A model generated the notes under the pieces. It was given only the letters and a program-made list of their open reading frames with translations. It was not told the DNA's origin and did not search any database. A program made the position numbers and the translations under genes. A DNA stretch of 64,000 nt from a virus (taxonomy: Duplodnaviria > Heunggongvirae > Uroviricota > Caudoviricetes), in IMG/VR virus record IMGVR_UViG_3300034091_000309; one strand, written 5' to 3'. Positions within the stretch are counted from its first letter, which is position 1; each line of letters starts with the position of its first letter. Of this stretch, positions 16,308-28,807 are shown in pieces.

Positions 16308-17372
16308 GTGACCGATAAAAACTCACCCGTTCCGTCCATCGATAAAATTACGCCCAAGGCCAAGCAGCGGAAGCAGATCCACGTCTCCGGGATCAACATG
16401 GCCAACGATTGCGGGCAGCGGTTTCTCTTCCGGTATATCTTGGGCATCAAATCCCCGCCCAGCGCCTTCCTGCTGGTGGGCAAATCCACGGATGAATCGG
16501 TTACGCGGGATCTCGACCACAAGATCGAGACCGGGGAGCTGCTCAAGCGCGAGGACGTGCTGGAAATCTCCGCGGCCAAATTCGACGCAGAGCAGAAGGC
16601 CGAACCGATCGAGCTGGACCAGGAAGAAAAAAAAGAAGGCAAGAGCCTGGACCAGGTGCTCGGAGAGGCAAAGGATAAGGCGGTATGCCTCTCCGGGCTG
16701 CATCACGACGAGGCGGCGCCGAAGATTCAGGCGGTGCGGACGCGGCGCAAGTTCTCCGTGGACATGGACGCCTTTCTGCGCGCACGGGCGAGGGAACTGC
16801 ACTTGGCCGGAGAGCAGGCGCCGGACAAGTACGCAGCCAAGCTGCTGCACGGCCAAGCGCAATCGCTCAACGCCGCCGCTCGGGACGGCATCGACTTCGT
16901 GGGGGAGCAGGACATTCAGGAGGTCATTGGCGACCAGCTCATCATCCGCGATACCAAGACCTCGGCCAAGTCGCCCACGCCCTCGTTCCTGGACGGTAGC
17001 GACAAGGCCGGCACGGCCGACGATTCGGAGCAGCTCACGGCCTACGCCGTGGCCTCGCATGTAATCGACGGGAAGCTCCCTGATCGCATGGTACTCGACT
17101 ACCTGGTGCGGACCAACGCGGCCAAGCCGACGGTCAAGTATGTGCCCACAGCGACGACGCGCTCGATGGATGATGTGCAGGTCTTTTTGAATCGCTTCAC
17201 CAACCTGATCCACGCCATGAAGACGGGAGTCTTTGTGCCAGCAAACCAGAGCTGGTGGGGCTGCAGCGAAAAGTGGTGCGGGTACAGTTCGATCTGTCCG
17301 TACTTCAAACGGCCCAAACTGGTGCAGATCAATGTGGAAGTTCAGACGGACAGAAAGCAGGATGCAAATTGA
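16308..17372 (+). CDS. PD-(D/E)xK nuclease, Cas4/RecB-like exonuclease with C-terminal Cys cluster
   Basis: GTG after RBS gaggagg; N-terminal motif IHVSGINMANDCGQRFLFRYILGI; catalytic motif GEQDIQEVIGDQLIIRDTKTS; C-terminal CSEKWCGYSSIC. Confidence 0.6.
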   Translation: MTDKNSPVPSIDKITPKAKQRKQIHVSGINMANDCGQRFLFRYILGIKSPPSAFLLVGKSTDESVTRDLDHKIETGELLKREDVLEISAAKFDAEQKAEPIELDQEEKKEGKSLDQVLGEAKDKAVCLSGLHHDEAAPKIQAVRTRRKFSVDMDAFLRARARELHLAGEQAPDKYAAKLLHGQAQSLNAAARDGIDFVGEQDIQEVIGDQLIIRDTKTSAKSPTPSFLDGSDKAGTADDSEQLTAYAVASHVIDGKLPDRMVLDYLVRTNAAKPTVKYVPTATTRSMDDVQVFLNRFTNLIHAMKTGVFVPANQSWWGCSEKWCGYSSICPYFKRPKLVQINVEVQTDRKQDAN

Positions 17373-17386
17373 AGACGACGATTGTT

Positions 17387-17566
17387 ATGACCGTGGAAAC
17401 AGATCACGGTTGGGATTCTACGCCCAACGCCGTAGGGATTTTGATCGACATGAAAGAGGCGGTCAAGGAATACCGCCTAGCTTTGGCGCGGAGTGGTGTA
17501 CTCAACCAGACGATAGTTGACCAGCAAACCGGAACTTTCATCAGGGTGGAGGTGTCGAATGCCTGA
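17387..17566 (+). CDS. small hypothetical protein (59 aa) between exonuclease and RecT
   Basis: Protein-like frame; its stop overlaps the RecT start. Confidence 0.4.
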   Translation: MTVETDHGWDSTPNAVGILIDMKEAVKEYRLALARSGVLNQTIVDQQTGTFIRVEVSNA

Positions 17567-18683
17567 AACCGCACTTGCAGTCAATGTGCCGCAACCGGCT
17601 CAGCTTCAGGTGAGCCGGGAGTGGGAGAATCACCTGGAGCTGATCCAGCGCACGGTGGCGCCGGGACTGACCCCGGAAGAGTTTCAGTTGTTTTGCCATG
17701 TGGCCCGTGTCCGCCACCTGGACCCGTTGCAGCGGCAGATCCACGCCGTCAAGCGCACGACTTGGGACCCGGAGAAGAGCGGCTACGTGGAGAAGATGAC
17801 GATTCAGACCGGCATTGACGGCTACCGGTCGATCGCCAACCGGACCAATATCTACATGCCCTCTGACAAGCTGCCACAGGTCGACGACGGCGGCAAACCG
17901 GATCTGCGGGTTACGGTGTGGGTGAAGAAGTTTTCGCCGAATGATGGAGCATGGCACGAGTTCGGCGCCACGGCCTACTACCGCGAGTTCGTTCAGACAA
18001 GAAAAAACAAGCAGAGCGGAAAGGTGGAGCCGAACTCCATGTGGGAGAAGATGCCCATCAACCAACTGACCAAGTGCGCGGAGGCACTGGCGCTGCGCCG
18101 CGGCTGGCCGGAGGAGTTGGGCGGCATCTATGTGGACGAAGAGATGCCCAGCCAGGAGCCAACCTACCTGCCGCCGGAGAACACGAAGCTGGACAAGACC
18201 AGGCGTGAGCTGGGCACACTCAAAACCTCGGCAGAGCCCAACCGGGGCCACGGGAACGAAGGCACACAGCGGCCACCGGAGCAAGAGATTTGCGCCGAGT
18301 GCCGAACGGTCAACGGTCACACGGAGGAGTGCAAGCTGAATTCCAAAAACGCGAAGCAGGCCAACCGGGGTCCCCAGCGACAGGTCCAAGTTGCTGGGGT
18401 GGAGAAGAAAAGCAAGCGGGAGGCCTGGGACAGCTATCCGGGCCACGATCCCAAGACTCATATCTCTTTCGCTGATGGGATTCAGCTCTTCGAGCTGCAG
18501 CGGAAACTGAGCATTGCCGAGGAGCAGGTCAAGGAATTGCTGGACCGGGAGTTCGAGATTCAGCATCGTCCGCTTATCCGGCAAGACCAGTTCCAACTGG
18601 TGCTGGATACCATCCAGAAGCAATTCGGGGAAAAGCCGGAAAAGGGCAACCTGGAGTCTCTGGAAGGTATGTTCTCGGAGTGA
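17559..18683 (+). CDS. recT: RecT-family single-strand annealing protein
   Basis: RBS ggaggtg precedes the ATG; typical RecT core FQLFCHVARVRHLDPLQRQIHAV...IQTGIDGYRSIANRT. Confidence 0.65.
   Translation: MPETALAVNVPQPAQLQVSREWENHLELIQRTVAPGLTPEEFQLFCHVARVRHLDPLQRQIHAVKRTTWDPEKSGYVEKMTIQTGIDGYRSIANRTNIYMPSDKLPQVDDGGKPDLRVTVWVKKFSPNDGAWHEFGATAYYREFVQTRKNKQSGKVEPNSMWEKMPINQLTKCAEALALRRGWPEELGGIYVDEEMPSQEPTYLPPENTKLDKTRRELGTLKTSAEPNRGHGNEGTQRPPEQEICAECRTVNGHTEECKLNSKNAKQANRGPQRQVQVAGVEKKSKREAWDSYPGHDPKTHISFADGIQLFELQRKLSIAEEQVKELLDREFEIQHRPLIRQDQFQLVLDTIQKQFGEKPEKGNLESLEGMFSE
18366..18402 (-). repeat. RPE-like palindromic element copy inside the recT coding region
   Basis: The sequence reads ggggtccccagcgacaggtccaagttgctggggtgg. 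Confidence 0.65.
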
Positions 18684-18768
18684 TTCACGTGATCTCAAAT
18701 AGGCAACGCAGATGACCCCCAAAAAGAAGAAGCCAGAGAAGAAACCCGAGCCAGTCCGCGATTCTGAG

Positions 18769-18888
18769 ATGGAGCCGGACTGGTCCGGCAAGTGCGAAGT
18801 GTGCGGAGAGTCGCCCATCGTCCCTGCGACGGGGCTGTGCGGACCTTGCAGTTTTGGAGAAGCGGAGACGGCTGGCGGAAACTGGTAA
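18769..18888 (+). CDS. possible small zinc-ribbon peptide (39 aa)
   Basis: Contains CEVCGES...CGPC; start and RBS are uncertain. Confidence 0.2.
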   Translation: MEPDWSGKCEVCGESPIVPATGLCGPCSFGEAETAGGNW

Positions 18889-18960
18889 GGATAAATCTAC
18901 GCTCGTGGGGTGTTGATATATGATGTTTTGTGTGCTGAATAGCACCGAGGAGACAGACCC

Positions 18961-19308
18961 ATGGCAGAACTCAAGTTGCAGATGGAGGATTACACCGAAG
19001 CGTTCCCGAGGCGGGTGAATATCGAGCCGTACATGCACATCATCGATGCGGCAAAAGACGCTCCGATGGGTAAAGACAAAATGCCGCGCGTTGTGGTCCA
19101 GATTTATGACACTGTGAAGGAGCTTAACCGGGCGGCGAACACGATCCGCCACTACAGCAACCTGAACAATCTGAATCTGCGCGTGTCGTCGGATGAGCAA
19201 AAGCTGAAGATGAAAGTGTACCGCGGCAAGCCGATGCAGAGGAGGACGAAGAAGGATGTACCCGCCCCGCCGGTAGCCAAAACAACCAGCAACGAAGGAG
19301 CCAGCTAG
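18961..19308 (+). CDS. hypothetical protein (115 aa)
   Basis: RBS gaggag precedes the ATG. Confidence 0.5.
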   Translation: MAELKLQMEDYTEAFPRRVNIEPYMHIIDAAKDAPMGKDKMPRVVVQIYDTVKELNRAANTIRHYSNLNNLNLRVSSDEQKLKMKVYRGKPMQRRTKKDVPAPPVAKTTSNEGAS

Positions 19309-19384
19309 GGTTGCGATCCCCGGCGGCTCGAAACAGCCGCCGGGCGCATCCGCCCATCGTTCCATCTTAAAAACCGAGGCCATC

Positions 19385-19696
19385 ATGTCCGAGCAAGGAA
19401 AGTTTGAAGCCGAGGCCATCGCGGCCAGCCTGGAATTTCATGAAGCGTTGCGGGCATTTTTTGACAAATACAATGTTCACGCCGCAGTCGTGTGTTGGGC
19501 GACAGGTGCCGGTGGGCACGTCGTGTCAATCACCTTGGGCTGTCCACATTGCGGGGGGGTGGCTCTGGCGCACACCGTCTACAATCTTGATTCCACGTGG
19601 AGAGAGTCCTTCGCGGAAGCGTTCAGAGATCAGCTTCAGGGGCGGAGCAATACGAAGGTGATCCACATGCAGATGGGCTCTGAGACGGTGCATTGA
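19385..19696 (+). CDS. hypothetical protein (103 aa)
   Basis: RBS gagg precedes the ATG. Confidence 0.5.
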   Translation: MSEQGKFEAEAIAASLEFHEALRAFFDKYNVHAAVVCWATGAGGHVVSITLGCPHCGGVALAHTVYNLDSTWRESFAEAFRDQLQGRSNTKVIHMQMGSETVH

Positions 19697-20082
19697 CCGG
19701 GAGGCGCCGGGCGCTCTTTCCAGCGGCCGGTGTCCAGATCCTGGACGGCTCAAAAACCAGCGATTCTAAAACGGTCTTGACATGAAACCGGAAGCCACGT
19801 CCAATGCAAATGGCGCGTGTGTCCGCATGTGCGCCGGCCCGGCCGCAGACTTTGGCCTTCAAGCGCTCATTGCTGCGGTTGGACGCTACGACGGGCCGGT
19901 CTCTCCTCGGTGGCCGGCCTGTTGCGTTTGTTGATGACCTCCTCCTTGGTTCGCCCAAATTTTTTCCACAGCCTGTGCAAAACTCAGAATTTAATGATTG
20001 CATCGTGTCTCAAAAAGGGTTAGGCTAACGCAGTTTGGTAATAGTGACCGATTCTTCACCGAAGGTTACTAGGGAGTCGAAG

Positions 20083-20337
20083 ATGAAAGATCTGTATGCC
20101 GAACTGCTGGTTGAGCCGACGATTGGACCCGAGGAGGTGGCGAAAATCCTGGGTATTTCGCGCCTGACGGCGCATCGTTGGGCCCAGCAAGGCCGGTTAC
20201 CTTCGTTTGCGCTCCCCTTTGGCTCACGAGGGAAGTGCCAGTACCGGTTCCGGGTATCCGAACTGGAGAAGTACCTGCAACAGCACGCGCACTCGGCGAA
20301 CGAGTTCGCTGCGGGTAGCCCAGTTGAAGGCGGTTGA
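20083..20337 (+). CDS. xis: excisionase-like HTH DNA-binding protein (Xis/MerR-type)
   Basis: RBS agggag precedes the ATG; HTH EVAKILGISRLTAHRWAQQGRLP; located immediately upstream of the integrase. Confidence 0.55.
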   Translation: MKDLYAELLVEPTIGPEEVAKILGISRLTAHRWAQQGRLPSFALPFGSRGKCQYRFRVSELEKYLQQHAHSANEFAAGSPVEGG

Positions 20338-20590
20338 TGGTTCCCGTTTGGGCATGGTGGCATTTTTGGTGGCATATTGACCAAAAGACCCGCAAACACC
20401 ATATATTTCAATAACATATAAATCCCTGGGGGGCAGCCAAGGACTACTACTTTTCTCGACCTGTTACCACCCATCTCGACTCAATGACCCCCTTTGAAAC
20501 CCAATAACCATGGGCTTTCCCGCATCTCAATCTTGTTCAGGACGTGCGGGGAGACACGAGGCGATTTTTCCGCAAACAGCTATTTACTGG

Positions 20591-20675
20591 TGCTATTTTT
20601 TGGCGTACTATCGAAAAATAGCACCACGGCTGGTGGTGCTATTTCAAGGGGAAGAGAAAAATAGCACCACCGAGG
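20591..20675 (+). repeat. three copies of AAAATAGCACCAC (one inverted) upstream of the integrase; candidate arm-type or operator sites
   Basis: The repeats read tggtgctatttt / aaaatagcaccacggctggtggtgctattt / aaaatagcaccac. Confidence 0.5.
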
Positions 20676-20683
20676 AGAAGACG

Positions 20684-21934
20684 ATGGCAGCCAACCGAGA
20701 ACTGACCAACCTGCATTGCGCCAAGGCCGCGCCCGGCGCCAAACCCTACCGCCTCGCCGACAAGGGAGGCCTCTACCTGCTGGTCACCCCGGCCGGGGGA
20801 ACACTGTGGCGCTGGAAGTACCGCTTCGAGGGTAAGCAAAAACAGATGGCCCTGGGCAAGTACCCCGATGTGTCGCTGGCGCAGGCGCGGCTGCTGCACG
20901 CCGAGGCGCGGGTTAAACTGGCCAGCGGCATCGACCCCATGAGCCAGCGCAAAGAAGAGAAGCTGGCCATCCGGGTCAGCCGCGCCGGGAAAGAAAAGCG
21001 GAGGGCGCTCACCTTTGAAAAATTGGTGCGCATGTGGTATGCCGAGAAATGGCGCAGGGGCAAGAACCCGCGCTATGCCGCCAATGTGCAAAGACGGCTG
21101 GAAACCGATGTCATCGCCCGGCTGGGCCGCAAAGACGCCGCCGCGATCACATCGGCGGATGTGGTGGAACTCACCAAAGCCGTGGATGGCCGGGGGGCCC
21201 GCGACATCGCCAAGCGCAACCTGCAGTTCATCCGCAAGATCTACAGATGGGGAAAGACCAACAACTATTTGGCCAGGGATGTAGTGAACCCGGCGGCGGA
21301 GATCGATATGCAGGATATTCTCTCCAACCACACCCCGGTCAAGTTCGCCCATCTGACCATCGCCGAGGTGCCGGAGCTGCTGCGCCGGATGCAGGACTAC
21401 AGCGGCAATGTGCTGACGCGGATAGCCATGGAGCTGATCGCCTTGACCTTCGTGCGCACCGGAGAGCTGATCGCCGCGGAGTGGAAGGAGATCGACTGGA
21501 AGAACCGCCAGTGGCATCTTCCCGCCCAACACATGAAGATGAAGCTGCCACACATCGTCCCGCTCTCCCGCCAGGCGATCACGCTGCTTCAACGGCTCCG
21601 CGCCATCAGCGAAAGGACGGGAAGACTCTTCCCCGATTACAACGGCGGGGCGGGCACGATGAGCAACAACACCATCCTCAAGGGGATGGAGCGGATGGGC
21701 TACAAGGGGCGCATGACCGGACACGGCTGGAGACACATCGCCAGCACCTACCTGCGCGGCCGGGGCTACGACAAATACTGGGTGGAGATGCAACTGGCCC
21801 ACAGGGAAGGCGGAGTTGCGGGGATCTACAACGAGGCGGAGTATCTGAAGCAGCGCACAGGAATGATGCAAGCCTGGGCCGACGCCCTGGACGAGATGCG
21901 CGTCGCCGGCGCCGGCAGTCTGCGCGCGGCGTGA
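20684..21934 (+). CDS. int: P4-like tyrosine integrase
   Basis: N-terminal arm-binding domain KPYRLADKGGLYLLVTPAGGTLWRWKYRFEGKQKQMALGKYPDVSLAQAR plus a C-terminal catalytic domain. Confidence 0.8.
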   Translation: MAANRELTNLHCAKAAPGAKPYRLADKGGLYLLVTPAGGTLWRWKYRFEGKQKQMALGKYPDVSLAQARLLHAEARVKLASGIDPMSQRKEEKLAIRVSRAGKEKRRALTFEKLVRMWYAEKWRRGKNPRYAANVQRRLETDVIARLGRKDAAAITSADVVELTKAVDGRGARDIAKRNLQFIRKIYRWGKTNNYLARDVVNPAAEIDMQDILSNHTPVKFAHLTIAEVPELLRRMQDYSGNVLTRIAMELIALTFVRTGELIAAEWKEIDWKNRQWHLPAQHMKMKLPHIVPLSRQAITLLQRLRAISERTGRLFPDYNGGAGTMSNNTILKGMERMGYKGRMTGHGWRHIASTYLRGRGYDKYWVEMQLAHREGGVAGIYNEAEYLKQRTGMMQAWADALDEMRVAGAGSLRAA

Positions 21935-21971
21935 GACATCCAGGAGCCTGAAAGAGAATCGAGGGCAGATG

Positions 21972-22002
21972 AACGGGGAACCGGAATCCGGTTCCCCGTT
22001 TC
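21972..22002 (+). terminator. rho-independent terminator after the integrase
   Basis: The hairpin aacggggaaccggaatccggttccccgtt is followed by t. Confidence 0.55.
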
Positions 22003-22141
22003 AGTAGATGGGATAATTGCTAGTTCATTCATAAACGGTTTCGACGTAACTGAACCCCTTACTTTTATCTTCAACTTAGTGATACACCGCACCGCTTGCA
22101 AAGGGATTTATAGCGTGGATAATCGCCATGGAGTTTCTTGG

Positions 22142-22179
22142 CACCCCACGGGCGATAGACCTACCCGTGGGGACCCCGG
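22142..22179 (+). repeat. RPE-like palindromic element copy
   Basis: The sequence reads caccccacgggcgatagacctacccgtggggaccccgg. Confidence 0.7.
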
Positions 22180-22194
22180 AAGAGCAAAGATTTC

Positions 22195-22419
22195 GTGGCC
22201 AGCAAAAACGCAAAGCCCATCCAGAGTTACCGGCCGCCGCTGGTGCTGCGCAAGAAGCAGGTGCTCGAAGCCATTGGCCTGAGCGCCAGCACCATCTTCG
22301 CGCTGCAGAAGGCGGGCAAGTTTCCCGCGCCCATCAGGCTGAGCCAGAGGGCGACGGGGTGGCTGAGCGCCGATATCGAACGATGGATTGAAGCCAGGGC
22401 CGCGGAGAGAGCGGCATGA
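22195..22419 (+). CDS. alpA: AlpA-family phage transcriptional regulator (HTH)
   Basis: GTG start; VLEAIGLSASTIFALQKAGKFPAPIRLSQRATGWLSADIERWIEAR. Confidence 0.55.
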   Translation: MASKNAKPIQSYRPPLVLRKKQVLEAIGLSASTIFALQKAGKFPAPIRLSQRATGWLSADIERWIEARAAERAA

Positions 22420-22464
22420 GACAGCTTCTAGCTCTTAGCTGACAGCGAACAGTTAGAAGCTAAC

Positions 22465-22482
22465 AGCCAGCGGCTGTTTTTC
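22465..22482 (+). terminator. rho-independent terminator
   Basis: The hairpin cagccagcggctg is followed by ttttt. Confidence 0.5.
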
Positions 22483-22588
22483 ATTCCCTTGACAGCGAAG
22501 CCGGAGGAGCAGGCTCCCCGGAGGGCTGGGTGCCCCCTGGGCAAGGGAGCGTTTGCTTTTTTAGAAGGATGGGCGGGGAGAACCGCAA

Positions 22589-23995
22589 GTGATTTCTGCT
22601 CGCGCTTTTTATAACGAGATCGACCCGCTCAAGGCCGAGATCCTGCGGGAGGTCATCAAGGCGGGCGCCATCGCGCCGGGGGATGTGGATGAACGATCAA
22701 TTGCAGATGTTCAACCCGGAGACCTCGCTGGATACACTCAAGCGCACTGGTTCGCTGGAGGAGGATTTTGGAGTCTTGCCCTCCGCCAAGCCGGCTGGCC
22801 CGACGAGCGCGAGGTCTGGACGGGAAGCTGCCCCTGCCCCAGCTTTAGCGCGGCGGGCAAAAGAGCGGGGTTTGACGATCCTCGCCACCTCTGGCCTGCT
22901 TGGGCGCGACTCATCCGCGAGTGCAGACCTCCAACAATCTTTGGAGAGCAGGTTGCTGCCGCGATTGGACATGGCTGGCTCGACCTTGTTTGCACAGACC
23001 TGGAGGCGGAAGGCTACGCCGTTGCGGCGGCGGTACTGGGAGCACACAGCGTCGGCGCTCCGCACATCCGGCAGCGGCTGTACTTCGTGGCCGGAGTCGG
23101 ATGCTTGCAGACGAGGCGGCGAATATGCGGACCCGGAGAAGGCTGCACTGCGGCGGGAACAGGGCCATCAGGTGAACCTCTCGGAGTCGGCGCAGATGGC
23201 GGTTTGGACGACGCCCCAGGCGCACGATGCGACGGGACGCTCGAAGGGTCAGAAGGCGATTCACGGGACGAAACACGGCTGCGCGGACCTGGTAGCGGAT
23301 GCGGCTCTGGCGGCTTGGGCGACGCCAGCCGAGCGGGACTGGAAGGACACGCCGGGGATGGCCGAGACGGGAACCAATCCAGACGGCTCAGAGAGAACGC
23401 GGCTGGATATGTTGCCGAGACAGGCGCATCTGGCATGCTGGCCGACGCCGCAGACAGCAGACGACAACCTGAGCCGGATGAAAGATCCGCAAGCCTACGC
23501 AGAGTGGAACCAGGGGCGACCGAACGCAGGGTCCAATCTGGCGACCTATGCGCAGAACCTGGCGAGCTGGCCCAGCCCCTGCACGCCGAGCGGCGGCCGT
23601 TCCGTCTCGACGGAGAAGATGGACGCGACGGGGCGGACGGAGGACGGCCGGAAACACGCGGCGACGCTGGAACATGCGATGAAGTTCGCGGGGTGGACGA
23701 CTCCGAGCCATACGGATTCCGAGCGAGGCGGGACGATGACCCCGGCCATGTCAGGATCATCACTCGTTCAGTTAGCGTCGGAAGTCCGCCCGTGCGGCCA
23801 GCGCCGCTTAACGGCTGGTGGGCGGATGCTGACTGGATCGGATGCCGGGATGGAAAGTTCCGGCCAGTTGAACCCGGAACATTCCCTTTGGCTACAGGGT
23901 ATCCCTGCCGTGTGGGTCTCCTTCGCCTTGCGGGCGATGCAATCTGTGTCCCGGCGGCGCAAGCGTTCATCGAAGCGTACTTAGAGACAGTGTGA
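22589..23995 (+). CDS. dcm: DNA (cytosine-5)-methyltransferase with apparent double frameshift (N- and C-terminal motifs in one frame, W-x-T-P repeat target-recognition region in +1 frame)
   Basis: Motif I is FAGGGF, the PC motif is CPCPSFSAAGKR, motif VIII is HIRQRLYFV, and motif X is GDAICVPAAQAFIEAY, all in frame A. The middle region WTTPQAHD/WATPAERD/WPTPQTADD/WTTPSHTD lies in frame +1 (ORF 22683..23984). Confidence 0.55.
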   Translation: MISARAFYNEIDPLKAEILREVIKAGAIAPGDVDERSIADVQPGDLAGYTQAHWFAGGGFWSLALRQAGWPDEREVWTGSCPCPSFSAAGKRAGFDDPRHLWPAWARLIRECRPPTIFGEQVAAAIGHGWLDLVCTDLEAEGYAVAAAVLGAHSVGAPHIRQRLYFVAGVGCLQTRRRICGPGEGCTAAGTGPSGEPLGVGADGGLDDAPGARCDGTLEGSEGDSRDETRLRGPGSGCGSGGLGDASRAGLEGHAGDGRDGNQSRRLRENAAGYVAETGASGMLADAADSRRQPEPDERSASLRRVEPGATERRVQSGDLCAEPGELAQPLHAERRPFRLDGEDGRDGADGGRPETRGDAGTCDEVRGVDDSEPYGFRARRDDDPGHVRIITRSVSVGSPPVRPAPLNGWWADADWIGCRDGKFRPVEPGTFPLATGYPCRVGLLRLAGDAICVPAAQAFIEAYLETV

Positions 23996-24057
23996 GTGCC
24001 AGTGAACAAGTGAAGCAGTGAATCAGCAAAACGGGTGACGGATGAAGGGCACATGGA

Positions 24058-24936
24058 ATGGGGAAGCTGCCGGCGTTTCAGTTCTACCCCGGAGACTGGC
24101 GGAAGGATGTCGGGGTGCAGTCGCTCAACTACTTTGACCGAGGAGTGTGGCACGAGATGCTTTGCCTGATGCACGAGTCCGAGCGCCGCGGGGTGCTGAC
24201 GCTGAACGGTCAGGCCATGAGCGACGACTCTCTCGGCCGGCTGCTTGGTTTGGATAAGCAAACTCTAACCACCACCTTAAACACCCTGCTAACCTCCGGG
24301 GTGGCCAGCCGCGAGGCCCAGACCGGCGCCATTTTCTGCCGGCGGATGGTGCGCGATGAAAAACTGCGCGAAGTGCGCGCTGCGGCGGGAAAACTCGGCG
24401 GAAATCCTCTTTTGCTTAATCAAAACCGAACCACCCCAGATAACCATGCCACCAAACAAACTCGAACCCCTTCATCTTCATCTTCAGTTTCATCTTCAAA
24501 AACAGAAATACCGGAATCGGCAAAGAACGCCGATTGCTCACCTGATGCTCAGGATCATGAACTCTTCACAGAGAAAAGCGGAGCCCCAACGGCAAGCCGG
24601 TTCCAGGATGCGGCATTGCGCGAGGTCTTTGCCTACTACCTGACCGTGATGCGGCGCAACCGGGCCACCTACACCTTCAGCGCCCTGCGGCGCAAGAAGG
24701 GACTGGCGCGCCTGGAAGAGGCGGTGCGCATGGCGCATGGCAGCTTGGTCGGCGCGGTGGAGCTGATGAAGGCCGTCGTCGACGAGGTGGCGCAGTCGGA
24801 GTTCCACATGGGCCGGGACCCCAAGACCGGGGGCAAGAGCTATTGCGAGTGGGAGGATCACCTCTTCCGCTCGACGGAACAATTTGAGAAGTGGGTGCAA
24901 CGGTACCAAGAGGCTGTAGCGAGAGAACAGAGGTGA
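24058..24936 (+). CDS. phage replication initiation or organizer-like protein (DUF1376-like N-terminus YFQFYPGDWRKD)
   Basis: N-terminal MGKLPAFQFYPGDWRKDVGVQSL; positioned upstream of the helicase. Confidence 0.45.
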   Translation: MGKLPAFQFYPGDWRKDVGVQSLNYFDRGVWHEMLCLMHESERRGVLTLNGQAMSDDSLGRLLGLDKQTLTTTLNTLLTSGVASREAQTGAIFCRRMVRDEKLREVRAAAGKLGGNPLLLNQNRTTPDNHATKQTRTPSSSSSVSSSKTEIPESAKNADCSPDAQDHELFTEKSGAPTASRFQDAALREVFAYYLTVMRRNRATYTFSALRRKKGLARLEEAVRMAHGSLVGAVELMKAVVDEVAQSEFHMGRDPKTGGKSYCEWEDHLFRSTEQFEKWVQRYQEAVAREQR

Positions 24937-25211: not shown

Positions 25212-25513
25212 AAGAGAGGATCACGCGAGGCAAGTGGATCGTCATGCCGCGCAGCGGTGCGGCCGGGGCCTCGGTGCACTCGACGGACGGATACTTGGTG
25301 GCTACGGTGGTGAGCCGAGCCTCGATCACGGAGACCAACGCCAACGCGCGGCTGATCGGCAAGGCGCCGGAGATGAAACAGATGCTCAAGCGGTGCGCTC
25401 GGGCGCTTTGCCCCTGCGACCCGAAGATGGTGGCCAAGAGCGGGCATGGAGACGGCTGCGCGGCCGTCGAGATCGAGGAGCTAATCGCGGAGATTGACGG
25501 AGAGATGGAATGA
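25208..25513 (+). CDS. hypothetical protein (101 aa)
   Basis: ATGA overlap with the upstream gene. Confidence 0.45.
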   Translation: MKERITRGKWIVMPRSGAAGASVHSTDGYLVATVVSRASITETNANARLIGKAPEMKQMLKRCARALCPCDPKMVAKSGHGDGCAAVEIEELIAEIDGEME

Positions 25514-26985
25514 GCGAGATCGACAACTACCGGCTTCCCGACAAAGCGCCTGAGCCCCCCGAGGATGATCTCACCTTGGACGAAGGTCTTTCACCCCTTC
25601 GATATGGACCCATCGCCGGGGACCCCGAGTTGCCGGCCAATGTGGACGCCGAGAAGACCATCCTGGGCGCGATCCTGCTGGACAATGCGGCCTTCCGCGA
25701 AGCTGCGGAATGTCTGGAGTCGGACGACTTCAGCCTGGACTCACACCGCCGCATCTTTCTGCGCATGGCCGAGCTGGTCGACACCGATCACGCAGTCGAT
25801 ATCGTCACCCTGGTGGCGAAACTGAGCCAATACAAGGAAGTCGCAGCCGTGGGCGGCGTAGCTTACCTGGCCGACCTGACGATGGGGCTACCGCGGCGGC
25901 CGGTGATCGAGGAGTACATCCGCATCGTCAAGGACAAGAGTCTGCTGCGCAAGGTCATGGGCATCTGTTCGACGGCCATTGCCCGCGCGGCCGACCAATC
26001 GGAAACCGCCCTGGAAGTCTTGGGAGCGGCGGAGTTGGCTCTTGCCGACCTGTTGCCAAAGTACATCCGCTATCGGCCGGAGGAGATTCTGGTCAGCGCC
26101 ACGGATTTCGCGGCCGACGCGCCCAGGGGTGTGGACTGGGCGGTGTGGGGAGTGATGCAGAGGGGGGGCAACGGGGTCATTGCGGCGGACGGCAAGACGG
26201 GCAAGAGTTTGCTGGCCATCCACCTGGCGCTCCATCTCGCCACGGGAACGGACTGGCTGGGTTTGCCGGTGACGCGGCCGGTGCAGGTGGCGCTCATCAG
26301 CCGGGAGGACGATCCGGGAGAGACGGCGCGGCGCATCGGCTCTATGGTGGCGGGCTCGGCTGCGGAGTTGAGGTATCTGGCCACGCTGGATGAGCGGTTC
26401 TGGCTCTCGACGCGGGCGCAGATGCCGACCTTCCTGCTGGAGAACAAAAAAGAGGTGCGGGAGATCACGGAGGCGCTGAAACACCGCAAAGTCGAGATCG
26501 CCTTCTTCGATGTCTTCCGCAGCCTGTGGACGGGGGATGAGAACGACGCCCAGGAGGAGAGCAAGGTGCTGGAGGTGTTGCGGGGGATTCAACGGGAGGC
26601 GGGCTGCTCGGTGGTCCTGCTGCACCACTTGAACAAGGGCGACAGCGTGAACCCTTTTCAGAAGCTGCGCGGTTCGACGGCGCTGAGCGGCTGGTGGGAG
26701 TGGGGTATGGGCATCTCCATCGTGAACCAGGAGGAGGACGAGACGGCCTGGGTGCGGGAGATCCGCTTCCAGACCAAGGCGGCGCGGGCGCACAGCCGCA
26801 TTCACTACCGGATCGCGGGGCCGGAGGAGGCCATGCGCATGGAGCGGACGGAGGCGCCTGAGCGGGCAGAGGCACGGCCGCGGCGCAAGGTGGCGGAGAT
26901 CGTCTCAGGGGGCAGAGATCAAGGGGCAGTGGTCAGAGAGATGCCACCGCCGGTCAAGAACTACTACGAAAAGGAAGAAGCATAA
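25510..26985 (+). CDS. replicative helicase: DnaB N-terminal domain fused to RecA-like/AAA_25 (RepA-type) ATPase
   Basis: DnaB-N sequence AEKTILGAILLDNAAFREA...; Walker A DGKTGKS; an RPE copy is read in frame at 25592-25629. Confidence 0.65.
   Translation: MSEIDNYRLPDKAPEPPEDDLTLDEGLSPLRYGPIAGDPELPANVDAEKTILGAILLDNAAFREAAECLESDDFSLDSHRRIFLRMAELVDTDHAVDIVTLVAKLSQYKEVAAVGGVAYLADLTMGLPRRPVIEEYIRIVKDKSLLRKVMGICSTAIARAADQSETALEVLGAAELALADLLPKYIRYRPEEILVSATDFAADAPRGVDWAVWGVMQRGGNGVIAADGKTGKSLLAIHLALHLATGTDWLGLPVTRPVQVALISREDDPGETARRIGSMVAGSAAELRYLATLDERFWLSTRAQMPTFLLENKKEVREITEALKHRKVEIAFFDVFRSLWTGDENDAQEESKVLEVLRGIQREAGCSVVLLHHLNKGDSVNPFQKLRGSTALSGWWEWGMGISIVNQEEDETAWVREIRFQTKAARAHSRIHYRIAGPEEAMRMERTEAPERAEARPRRKVAEIVSGGRDQGAVVREMPPPVKNYYEKEEA
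25592..25629 (+). repeat. RPE-like palindromic element copy read in-frame within the helicase N-terminus
   Basis: The sequence reads caccccttcgatatggacccatcgccggggaccccgag. Confidence 0.65.
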
Positions 26986-27016: not shown

Positions 27017-28807
27017 GTGAGTTACCGGGTCTTGGAGGGAGACGTGATGGAGGTACTGAAGACACTGCCGGATGAGTCGGTGCAGTGCTGCATCACTTCG
27101 CCCCCCTATTTTGGACTCCGCGATTATCAGATTCCGCCCAGCGTGTGGCCGAAACCCAGTAGTCAGTTGTCAAAGATCAGTTGTCAGCATGAGTGGATCA
27201 CCGAAGAGGTGGAGCGGGAGATGCGGCGCGGGCTGGGACTGAAAGACTCGCCGGCCAGCACACGTGGCGGGGCGATCAAATGCGCCGAGGTGGAGACGCA
27301 GCGCTTCGAGCGGGGCTTCTGCCGGCATTGCGGAGCCTGGAAAGGCTGTCTGGGGTTAGAACCCACGCCGGAGCTGTACGTGGCGCACATGGTGGAGGTC
27401 TTCCGCGAAGCACGGCGGGTGCTGCGGTCGGACGGCACATTGTGGCTGAACTTGGGGGATTGCTACGCGAACGATGGCAAATGGGGCGGCGAGACCGGCG
27501 GGAAGCAAGCCTATCTCGACGACGACAATCGCAAGCGTGTCGGCCGTGAAAAGCGGCTGACCGGGCTCAAGCCCAAGGACTTGGTGGGCATTCCCTGGAT
27601 GCTGGCCTTCGCGCTGCGCGCCGATGGCTGGTGGCTGCGCTCCGAGATCATTTGGTTTAAGCCGAATCCATTCCCCGAGAGCGTGACGGACCGGCCGACA
27701 AAAGCGCATGAGCAACTTTTCCTGCTGACCAAGAGCGCACGGTATTTTTACGACGCCGAGGCGATCAAGGAGCCGGGGGTGATGAAGCCGCAGGCCCGGC
27801 TTACGCCGCGGGATTTTGTGAACGGCAAAGACGCAGGGCGGCGGGCTGACCGGAGGCCGAATTATCGTCTGCGCGAAGCGGCCGAGCAAGAGAACGCGAT
27901 GCGCAACAAGCGCGATGTGTGGACGATTGCCGACGAGTCACCCCAACGATATGGACCTATCGTTGGGGACCCCGACGATACTCCACCAGCTCAAGGGAAG
28001 TGGTCCGGTGAAAACCCGCAAGCAGCAAGCCGGCGGATGACGGACAATGTGCGGGCTGCGAGAGCTGCGGGCGGAGCGCACGACAATCCCTTTTCACCCC
28101 ACGGACGTGGACCTGTCGTTGGGGACCCCGATTTCAGCACTGGCAGCAAGCATGGCCGCGGTATGACGCCACGGCACACACCGTATACGACGAGTTGCGA
28201 CCAATCGGGTCTGGATTCTGTTGAGCGCGGCGCCGGCCGCAACAAGAGAAGCGTGTGGGAGATTGCCACGCAGCCTTGGCCGCAGGCGCACTTCGCCACC
28301 TTCCCCGAAAAACTTGTTGAGCCCTGCATTCTGGCCGGCACCAGCGAGAGAGGCTGCTGTCCGCAGTGCGGCGCACCGTGGAGGCGGCCAACTTTCCGAG
28401 CCTGTAAAGAGTGTGGAGAGCCAATCCCGACGCAGGCCGACGAATGCGGCAACTGTGGTCACGTCAACGACTGGAAGAAAGGCCGCGTTGTCTCGGCGGA
28501 GATGCTGGCCACAGACTTTCATACGCCTGGACGCAGTGTGCCCCGCTACCCCGGCGGATTCGAGAACAAGACGCAGAGCGGTGATTGGCAGCCGACCTGC
28601 TCTTGCGGCGCGGAAGTTCCGGTGCCCTGCACGGTGCTGGACTGCTTCTGCGGTTCGGGGAGTTGCGGCGTGGTGGCGCTGCGCTATGGCCGGGATTTCA
28701 TTGGCATCGAATTGAATCCCCAGTATGCGGAGATGGCGAGAAGGCGCATTGAAGGCGATGCGCCGTTGTTTAATACGCCATCCGGAGGGGAGAGCGATGC
28801 TGCTTAA
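27017..28807 (+). CDS. DNA methyltransferase (N6-adenine or N4-cytosine; SPPY and FCGSGS motifs) with zinc ribbons and two in-frame RPE insertions
   Basis: Motif IV reads SPPYF and motif I reads LDCFCGSGS; in-frame RPE copies lie at 27939-27975 and 28095-28131. Confidence 0.65.
   Translation: MSYRVLEGDVMEVLKTLPDESVQCCITSPPYFGLRDYQIPPSVWPKPSSQLSKISCQHEWITEEVEREMRRGLGLKDSPASTRGGAIKCAEVETQRFERGFCRHCGAWKGCLGLEPTPELYVAHMVEVFREARRVLRSDGTLWLNLGDCYANDGKWGGETGGKQAYLDDDNRKRVGREKRLTGLKPKDLVGIPWMLAFALRADGWWLRSEIIWFKPNPFPESVTDRPTKAHEQLFLLTKSARYFYDAEAIKEPGVMKPQARLTPRDFVNGKDAGRRADRRPNYRLREAAEQENAMRNKRDVWTIADESPQRYGPIVGDPDDTPPAQGKWSGENPQAASRRMTDNVRAARAAGGAHDNPFSPHGRGPVVGDPDFSTGSKHGRGMTPRHTPYTTSCDQSGLDSVERGAGRNKRSVWEIATQPWPQAHFATFPEKLVEPCILAGTSERGCCPQCGAPWRRPTFRACKECGEPIPTQADECGNCGHVNDWKKGRVVSAEMLATDFHTPGRSVPRYPGGFENKTQSGDWQPTCSCGAEVPVPCTVLDCFCGSGSCGVVALRYGRDFIGIELNPQYAEMARRRIEGDAPLFNTPSGGESDAA
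27939..27975 (+). repeat. RPE-like palindromic element copy in-frame in the MTase (encodes SPQRYGPIVGDP)
   Basis: The sequence reads caccccaacgatatggacctatcgttggggaccccga. Confidence 0.75.
28095..28131 (+). repeat. RPE-like palindromic element copy in-frame in the MTase (encodes SPHGRGPVVGDP)
   Basis: The sequence reads caccccacggacgtggacctgtcgttggggaccccga. Confidence 0.75.

Follow-up and report, generated by a model that had tools for sequence, protein, structure and literature searches.

Two nested open reading frames at one locus

The window considered here is a stretch of 64,000 nucleotides (nt) from a virus of the class Caudoviricetes (IMG/VR record IMGVR_UViG_3300034091_000309), and its positions 22589 to 23995 hold a gene related to those of DNA cytosine-5 (C5) methyltransferases. 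The initial annotation had noticed that the catalytic motifs at the two ends of this gene lie in one reading frame (called frame A below) and that repeats suggestive of a target-recognition domain (TRD) lie between them in the +1 frame. It proposed two compensating frameshifts (a pseudogene or sequencing errors), programmed frameshifting, or phase variation. The DNA contains two long open reading frames (ORFs) on the same strand. One, which we call alpha, lies in frame A and specifies 468 amino acids (aa), from a GTG start at 22589, preceded by GGGGAG at 22575-22580, to a TGA stop at 23993-23995. The other, beta, lies in the +1 frame and specifies 433 aa (22683-23984, with a TAG stop at 23982-23984). 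Beta is nested wholly within alpha, so that 433 of the 468 alpha codons are also open in the +1 frame. Two ATG codons, at 22683 and 22689, are candidates for its start, and GGGGG at 22678-22682 is better spaced for the second. How the same bases serve both frames can be seen in C-TGG-CCG-ACG-CC, which gives WPTP in one frame and, as CTG-GCC-GAC-GCC, LADA in the other.

The catalytic motifs are found in frame A at both ends of the gene, where the initial annotation had placed them, and their coordinates hold. They are FAGGGF (22751-22768), PCPSFSAAGK with the catalytic Pro-Cys of motif IV (22832-22861), FGEQV, an ENV-type motif VI (22940-22954), HIRQRLYFVA, a motif VIII of the Q/R-x-R kind (23063-23092), and, within 23909-23980, motif X, GDAICVPAAQAFIEAY. 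Residues P82, C83, E120, Q121, R161, and R163 of alpha are invariant in 101 sequences. The protein matches phrog_363 along its full length (E 1.6e-66), and its residues 73-168 match PF00145 (E 1.7e-17; 64.3 bits, against a cut-off of 22) over profile positions 61-160 of 324, the portion containing motifs IV through VIII. The coverage is equally partial in seven relatives.

Alpha may be divided into three parts. The first 170 residues (22589-23098) form the catalytic, or large, domain, delimited by the model from AlphaFold2 (AF2), where the predicted local distance difference test (pLDDT) exceeds 90, by Foldseek, and by a peak of substitutions at the third codon position of frame A. Residues 173-396 (23105-23776) make up a linker rich in Gly, Asp, Arg, and Glu, predicted to be disordered because its pLDDT is only 36-45, and set apart also by its substitutions and by the counts of stop codons. 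The low complexity that the initial annotation attributed to the middle of frame A (approximately 23100-23800) is evident in the translation. The C-terminal block (23816-23980) consists of a conserved hairpin, WWADADWIGCRDGKFRP, followed by the helices of motif X, RVGLLRLAGDAICVPAAQAFIEAY. In the AF2 model, residues 410-468 fold as a hairpin and two helices (strands at 415-427, helices at 441-467; pLDDT 59-95), and the helices pack with the N-terminal domain. The structural matches found by Foldseek include M.HhaI (2z6a, E 4e-9) and M.HaeIII (E 5e-8), with DNMT1 also matched, and the alignment extends over about 195 residues, the large domain, of an enzyme (M.HhaI) of 327 residues. Alpha thus has, as modelled, the fold of the catalytic large domain of a C5-methyltransferase, and the formation of 5-methylcytosine is the predicted activity of the enzyme. 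A recognition domain and motif IX are not found in the alpha chain between motifs VIII and X, where the sequence under selection is that of the +1 frame.

A further feature of this family concerns the N-terminus. Within the first 80 residues (22589-22830), the FxGxG motif (FAGGGF, aa 55-60) follows the sequences YNEID and VDERSI, which to the eye look like motifs II and III. In the alpha protein of Paenibacillus phage Hobie, unlike that of the window, motif I is at the N-terminus. Judging by this order, the first strands of the fold may be permuted.

Beta, too, has recognizable parts. Near its N-terminus lies a structured element consisting of a helix and a beta hairpin (aa 83-127, 22929-23063), evident both in the AF2 model (pLDDT 73-89 for residues 78-125, a stretch constrained in both frames) and in the substitutions. 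The model is confident as well for the terminal helices (aa 398-425). From 23088 to 23861 there follows an array of six modules of about 37 to 43 aa, each headed by W-x-[TS/E]-P, over which +1 is the selected frame. The heads are WPESD (23088), WTTPQAHD (23205), WATPAERD (23316), WPTPQTAD (23439), WPSPCTPSGG (23568), and WTTPSHTD (23694). The W-x-T-P repeats reported by the initial annotation for the +1 frame are thus real, all six heads being present, and their matches to databases and profiles go beyond chance. Its claim that the TRD region lies in the +1 frame needs to be amended: recognition-type sequence is indeed there, and under +1 selection, but the open stretch of the +1 frame reaches well beyond that interval, from 22683 to 23984. 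Beta matches phrog_1008 and phrog_31772. The public annotation of the exact sequence by the Joint Genome Institute (JGI) recognizes only the +1 ORF, from an internal ATG (23196-23984, 262 aa, "hypothetical protein"), and leaves the stretch encoding the catalytic domain (22589-23195) without a gene.

Modules like those of the array were obtained by splitting 328 beta proteins at each W-x-[TS]-P, and these were sorted into types by community detection on a graph of strict edges (single linkage gave one cluster). A beta protein carries 1 to 15 modules, mostly four or five, each typically of 30 to 45 aa, and more than 20 types recur with a clear consensus, T3 and T7 among them. For example, the consensus of T1 is WxTPSxRDWKDTPGMxxxxNPDGxxRxRxDQLPRxA and that of T2 is WTTPQAHDxxGRSxxQKxxHGTKHGCAxL. 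A given type occurs mostly once per protein, and the 328 proteins display 276 different orders. Beta is therefore a mosaic. In the window, the order is T2 (23205-23315), T1, T19, T3, T0, preceded by a degenerate first unit.

The array is followed by a block resembling motif IX, GQLNPEHSLWLQGIPAVW (23862-23915), which fits the pattern L-x-P-x4-5-[RW]-L-[MQ]-G-x-P. A model built from this C-terminal end of beta, like the profile of beta in full, matches the +1 frame (relative to the catalytic domain) in four distant phage methyltransferase loci. Read in frame A, the same DNA gives RPVEPGTFPLATGYP, so that over 23862-23905 both frames look like motif IX (GQLNPEHSLWLQGIP in +1), since CCCG and GGGTATCCC give Pro and Gly-x-Pro either way. 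The double reading could be coincidence or the trace of a change of frame that created the nested layout.

Conservation of the two frames

The frame under selection was determined region by region. Whether the two ends of the gene share a frame was followed in 86 loci, and the nested layout in the window, in 74 nonredundant viral loci, and in 13 loci in bacterial genomes. Substitution spectra, i.e., the fraction of differing sites at each codon position of frame A, were calculated from the 74 nonredundant loci. In the N-terminal domain (motifs I through VIII), the fractions at positions 1, 2, and 3 are 0.19, 0.16, and 0.43, so frame A is selected. In the middle they are 0.37, 0.14, and 0.11; the first position of frame A is the wobble position of the +1 frame, and selection there is consequently on the +1 frame. 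Immediately after motif VIII the junction is unalignable, with a diversity of 0.67 at all three positions. One stretch within the N-terminal domain, that encoding the structured element of beta, is constrained in both frames, since it overlaps motifs VI through VIII of alpha, and over it the diversity at the third position of frame A falls to 0.24-0.41.

The C-terminal block is more intricate. When it is aligned at the level of codons, the hairpin WWADADWIGCRDGKFRP is constrained at all positions, the +1 frame dominates over the frame A sequence VEPGTFPLATGYPCR (read as QLNPEHSLWLQGIPAV in +1), and frame A dominates over RVGLLRLAGDAICVPAAQAFIEAY, with the third position most variable over motif X. 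Over the motif-IX-like block, it is the first position of frame A that varies most. Amino acid identities follow the same course: 0.75 in frame A and 0.38 in +1 over residues 40-75 of alpha, 0.65 and 0.56 over residues 130-168, 0.69 and 0.86 over the motif-IX-like block (the most conserved stretch of the gene, and the best conserved of the +1 frame), and 0.68 and 0.45 over motif X. The selected path thus runs through frame A (motifs I through VIII), passes to +1 (the variable region and the motif-IX-like block), and returns to frame A (motif X). Because motifs I through VIII and X make up the large domain of solved enzymes, and the variable region or TRD together with motif IX makes up the small domain (PMC3404938), the path places the large domain in frame A and the small domain in +1. 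Only about 65 + 35 codons are truly constrained in both frames.

Both ORFs are kept open beyond the regions where their own products are under selection. By comparison with codon-permutation controls, the +1 frame has 6 stop codons in the N-terminal domain where 105 would be expected, and frame A has none in the middle where 233 would be expected (73 loci), while the +2 frame has 401 there. The linker of alpha is therefore kept open without selection on its amino acids. Among the loci examined, with GC fractions of 0.47 to 0.68, the +1 frame is open from about 70 to 100 nt past the start of alpha until about 10 to 30 nt before its stop, covering about 90% of alpha, and the +2 frame carries 8 to 34 stops per gene. 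The +1 ORF persists even at 49% GC (locus L026) and at 47% GC (Paenibacillus phage Hobie). Antisense frames contain a mean of 5.7 to 10.9 stops per gene in the 74 loci. A 415-aa ORF on the minus strand of the window (23014-24261) overlaps the gene but is not conserved and is an artefact of high GC.

The start of beta is conserved in position. In most of the 74 loci the +1 frame has its first ATG within nt 88-130 of alpha, where GAT-GAR or GAT-GTN gives rise to it. At the two sites that form ATG, Asp is encoded by GAT in 66% and 63% of instances, against 31% elsewhere. Similarly, the Arg of ERSI is encoded by AGG in 19% of loci, against 5% elsewhere, making AGGAG about 8 nt upstream of the start of beta.

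The layout is by no means peculiar to the window. The N- and C-terminal blocks are in the same frame and the same ORF in 78 of the 86 loci, and nesting is found in the window, in the 74 nonredundant viral loci, and in most of the 13 bacterial loci (in Acidobacteriota, Pseudomonas, and others), so the arrangement is not an accident of this copy. The annotated methylases of three phages (Salmonella phage epsilon15, Rhodobacter phage RcCWillis, and Escherichia phage Ivi), which are intact, are colinear with frame A throughout, the odd middle included (LGDASRAGLEGH, LGDGERAGLEGY, and MGNADNSRLEGH correspond to one another). In three loci (L045, L073, and L098) the N-terminal domain and the C-terminal block lie in different frames. 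True pseudogenes, faulty assembly, or insertions may account for them, and they are the exceptions to which the explanation of the initial annotation would apply.

Each frame has a large protein family of its own. That of frame A includes at least 7,985 database proteins with PF00145. The profile of beta finds 27,699 clusters in a library of 1.84 billion proteins (9,115 of them at E ≤ 1e-30), and the homology of beta to its family extends from end to end. With its peptide as query, tblastn finds the +1 frame of phage genes annotated as methylases (E 2e-9 to 2e-6), and a word-indexed search finds 291 database proteins, "hypothetical proteins" lacking a Pfam domain. PHROGs, too, separates the frames, with A in phrog_363 and +1 in phrog_1008 and phrog_31772. 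Gene finders allow one gene per stretch on a strand, hence they call either alpha or beta. In PMG1 and Cr-LKS3 the +1 ORF alone is annotated, and in GenBank phage K1ind2 both overlapping ORFs are, as "C-specific methylase" and "Mte8-like protein." Ten long proteins of the beta family were found to contain no methyltransferase domain, so no single-frame ancestor came to light. A literature search on "Mte8" and on methyltransferases of phages that are overprinted or read in alternative frames yielded nothing functional, and the arrangement was not found described for these phages.

Of the four distant loci matched by the motif-IX-like block, two (in Paenibacillus phage Hobie and Stenotrophomonas phage SOVA965) share the nested layout of the window. 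In the other two, Mycobacterium phage Rebeuca (gp80/gp79) and Gordonia phage Jumbo, the alpha protein ends after motif VIII, and LPTP modules, a W-MMG-P-GW block, and also motif X are found in the +1 product. Proteins of the beta type, by this token, are integral parts of methyltransferases. The model of the beta family matches Rebeuca gp79 with 32 bits. The "DNA methylase" pairs of these actinophages are split enzymes with the second gene in +1 (Rebeuca, 1306-2299 of L102; Jumbo, 1300-2191 of L104). In Jumbo, motif IX lies inside gp36, annotated as a hypothetical protein, and motif X (LGNSV) follows, still in +1, just past the annotated end of gp36.

The pair in the window is located in the early region of an integrated phage-like element (prophage). 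According to the gene calls of the identical JGI contig, a tyrosine integrase (20510-21934) is followed by an AlpA-type excisionase (22195-22419), the alpha/beta pair, a 292-aa ORF (24058-24936), a DnaB/AAA_25 helicase (approximately 25510-26985), and a second methyltransferase (PF01555, of the N6/N4 type; approximately 27047-28807). The search for a tRNA beside the integrase found none in 17000-23000, and a consensus scan of the alpha/beta gene did not find a promoter-like site. Directly 3' of the stop codon of alpha is an 8-nt tandem repeat (AGTGAACA, 2.8 copies, 24001-24022).

A probable two-subunit enzyme and the alternatives

How can one account for a gene whose two frames take turns under selection? 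Probably the locus is an intact pair of nested genes on one strand, encoding a two-subunit (split) DNA C5-methyltransferase. According to the model, alpha would supply the catalytic large domain (motifs I through VIII), then a disordered spacer of about 225 residues, whose sole requirement would be freedom from stop codons, and finally the hairpin and motif X that complete the large domain. Beta (approximately 22689-23984) would be translated separately, with a ribosome-binding site of its own some 100 nt inside alpha, and would supply the small domain: a short structured element, the W-x-T-P modules in the place of a TRD, and the helix resembling motif IX. The two chains would assemble on DNA into the active enzyme, which would methylate phage and host DNA, guarding it against restriction. 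If the modules of beta are target-recognition modules, as their position and variability suggest, then differing sets might confer differing, and possibly multiple, specificities.

Several observations weigh against this account. Translation of either frame at this locus is something we infer from the sequence, and a Shine-Dalgarno-like sequence precedes beta in just 41 of the 74 loci by a crude criterion of spacing. The loci are related phylogenetically, so that the shuffle statistics overstate their independence. Since PF00145 reaches only motifs IV through VIII, motifs I and X of alpha were assigned by eye, an assignment that gains support from the packing of the C-terminal helices with the N-terminal domain in the AF2 model. 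Beta is the more difficult case. It finds no match in Pfam, NCBIfam, or the sequences of PDB; its AF2 model is poor (mean pLDDT 58), and a Foldseek search with the model returned only noise, so fold evidence for a small domain in beta is absent. The identification of GQLNPEHSLWLQGIPAVW with motif IX comes from its pattern and position, profile matches to canonical enzymes falling short of significance, and the model of the block did not match the canonical monomeric enzyme of a Streptococcus phage (IPP52).

Perhaps, then, alpha alone is a complete methyltransferase that recognizes DNA through its C-terminal hairpin, and the +1 gene is an unrelated phage protein overprinted on it (e.g., an anti-restriction or regulatory protein). 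The hairpin, WxDADWxxCRDGKxRP, is conserved (identity 0.71) and modelled with moderate confidence, frame A itself shows a weak pattern of motif IX (RPVEPGTFPLATGYP), and beta lacks detectable similarity to solved methyltransferases. An unrelated protein, however, would hardly carry motif X, an essential element of the catalytic domain, as the homologous +1 products do in Rebeuca (gp79) and Jumbo, nor would the selected frames be expected to reproduce the canonical order of motifs I through VIII, variable region, IX, and X. In addition, both chains are required in M.EcoHK31I, a comparison taken up below, and alpha would be left without an ordinary recognition domain, because its middle is disordered and unconstrained. 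We consider this possibility unlikely. It is still more doubtful that the only translated frame is A and that +1 is a shadow ORF, its conservation reflecting constraint on DNA or RNA. High GC does favor long shadow ORFs, as the antisense ORF of the window attests, and gene callers differ on which frame to call. But substitutions in the middle are most frequent at the wobble position of the +1 frame and rarest at the second position of its codons, the ORF persists at 47-49% GC, and the antisense and +2 frames are full of stops. The idea seems to us highly improbable.

The remaining alternatives resemble those first offered for the locus. A single chimeric chain might arise by two recoding events, a shift of +1 after motif VIII and one of -1 between motifs IX and X, and the selected frames, taken in series, do give the canonical order of motifs with a plausible spacing from IX to X. 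Programmed frameshifting, however, finds little to act upon: a slippery heptamer occurs in only 11 of 74 loci, and scattered, no long homopolymer lies at the switch, the junction after motif VIII defies alignment, and neither frame terminates past the supposed points of shift. Moreover, the +1 ORF has its own conserved ATG. A double frameshift requires no opening outside the parts used, yet both ORFs are open far beyond them, a fact that recoding leaves unexplained and two separate polypeptides explain. Recoding is accordingly a very unlikely explanation. Phase variation fares no better, as the longest homopolymer in 23090-23160 and 23750-23860 is CCC and the gene contains no tandem or direct repeats. 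As for a pseudogene or sequencing errors in this copy, i.e., two compensating indels, the pattern of frames viewed in isolation resembles just that. But intact homologues are colinear in frame A, the very finding that the initial annotation had named as refuting its proposal, the layout is identical in the great majority of loci and in phages of Escherichia, Salmonella, Rhodobacter, and Paenibacillus, and the same sequence is present on three independent metagenome contigs. The sequences PCPSFS and GDAI, which might suggest that frame A has decayed, are in fact what the closest 100 relatives have as their consensus, i.e., the consensus of the subfamily. We regard the probability of decay or error as negligible.

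If the locus encodes two nested subunits, then it may be, though here we would stop a little short of calling it probable, that a superfamily of phage and prophage methyltransferases, tens of thousands of clusters in size, consists of two almost fully overlapping genes on one strand, with a catalytic subunit that reads through the gene of the recognition subunit as a disordered spacer, kept clear of stops but not constrained in other ways, and a recognition subunit that is a mosaic of exchangeable specificity modules, the two making a multispecific split enzyme. The overlaps would be among the longest and most widespread on one strand known in prokaryotic viruses. They would also constitute a systematic blind spot of annotation, since gene callers usually pick up a single member of each pair and Pfam has no model for the beta family, and the nested layout would explain many "hypothetical proteins" and some "DNA methyltransferases" in which a methyltransferase domain is missing. 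The locus itself is a clear case, from nature, of the toleration of a long overlap: selection is partitioned so that each stretch serves mainly one frame. If the modules are units of recognition, phages could change or stack methylation specificities by exchanging them, and the supposed location of the recognition domain in enzymes of the M.EcoHK31I type would need revision.

Comparison with known systems

The closest precedent in architecture is M.EcoHK31I of E. coli HK31 (recognizing YGGCCR), a C5-methyltransferase that later papers describe as a heterodimer whose beta gene is nested (Lee, Kam & Shaw 1995, cited through PMC2836561 and PMC3404938). The alpha gene contains, in a different frame, the entire coding sequence of the beta chain, and the two chains must associate for the enzyme to be active (PMC2836561); alpha contributes motifs I through VIII and X, and beta contributes motif IX (PMC2836561, PMC3404938). 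In the window as well, beta lies wholly inside alpha, on the same strand and in a different frame, and alpha carries motifs I through VIII and X (some assigned by eye), with frame A selected over both blocks. The N-terminal part of the M.EcoHK31I beta is dispensable, and internal Met codons can initiate translation (PMC2836561), which is compatible with the unconstrained leader of beta in the window. The differences are nonetheless considerable. The beta of M.EcoHK31I occupies 176 of 309 codons, whereas that of the window occupies 433 of 468. The literature places the TRD of M.EcoHK31I in alpha, whereas the variable array of the window, the putative site of recognition, is in beta. The window gene is borne by a prophage, no adjacent endonuclease was identified, and the likeness drawn here is one of architecture. 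Phage K1ind2 was considered as a possible carrier of M.EcoHK31I itself, given an alpha of the same length (309 aa), but the Met positions of the +1 ORF in this phage disagree with the beta described for the enzyme (176 aa, with Met 17 and Met 26).

A second kind of split enzyme is represented by M.AquI alpha/beta and by gene pairs of mycobacteriophages and Gordonia phages such as Rebeuca gp80/gp79. As in the model proposed for the window, the enzyme is divided after motif VIII and the second chain is in +1 relative to the first. In those cases, however, alpha stops after motif VIII, the overlap is about 50 nt, and beta contains motif X. In the window motif X is back in the frame of alpha, and therefore alpha must read through the whole of the beta gene.

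The array of modules brings to mind the multispecific C5-methyltransferases of Bacillus phages (SPR, phi3T, rho11s, and H2), single polypeptides in one frame with tandem target-recognizing domains. Like the window gene, they are carried by phages, with several short modules between motifs VIII and IX in combinations that vary from phage to phage. Unlike them, the array of the window is nested in a second frame, and the resemblance is one of layout only, without implying equivalence of the modules. References on these enzymes are listed in PMC8936443.

That a C5-methyltransferase may function in pieces is known also from M.HhaI, M.BspRI, and M.SssI, whose split fragments complement one another (PMC3404938), though these differ from the pair in the window in being engineered and separately encoded, without nested coding. 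Set among these systems, the locus is intact and in no way exceptional within its very large family, whose layout is probably that of a nested two-subunit methyltransferase, of a kind known from M.EcoHK31I but in a variant that is new and much more extensive.

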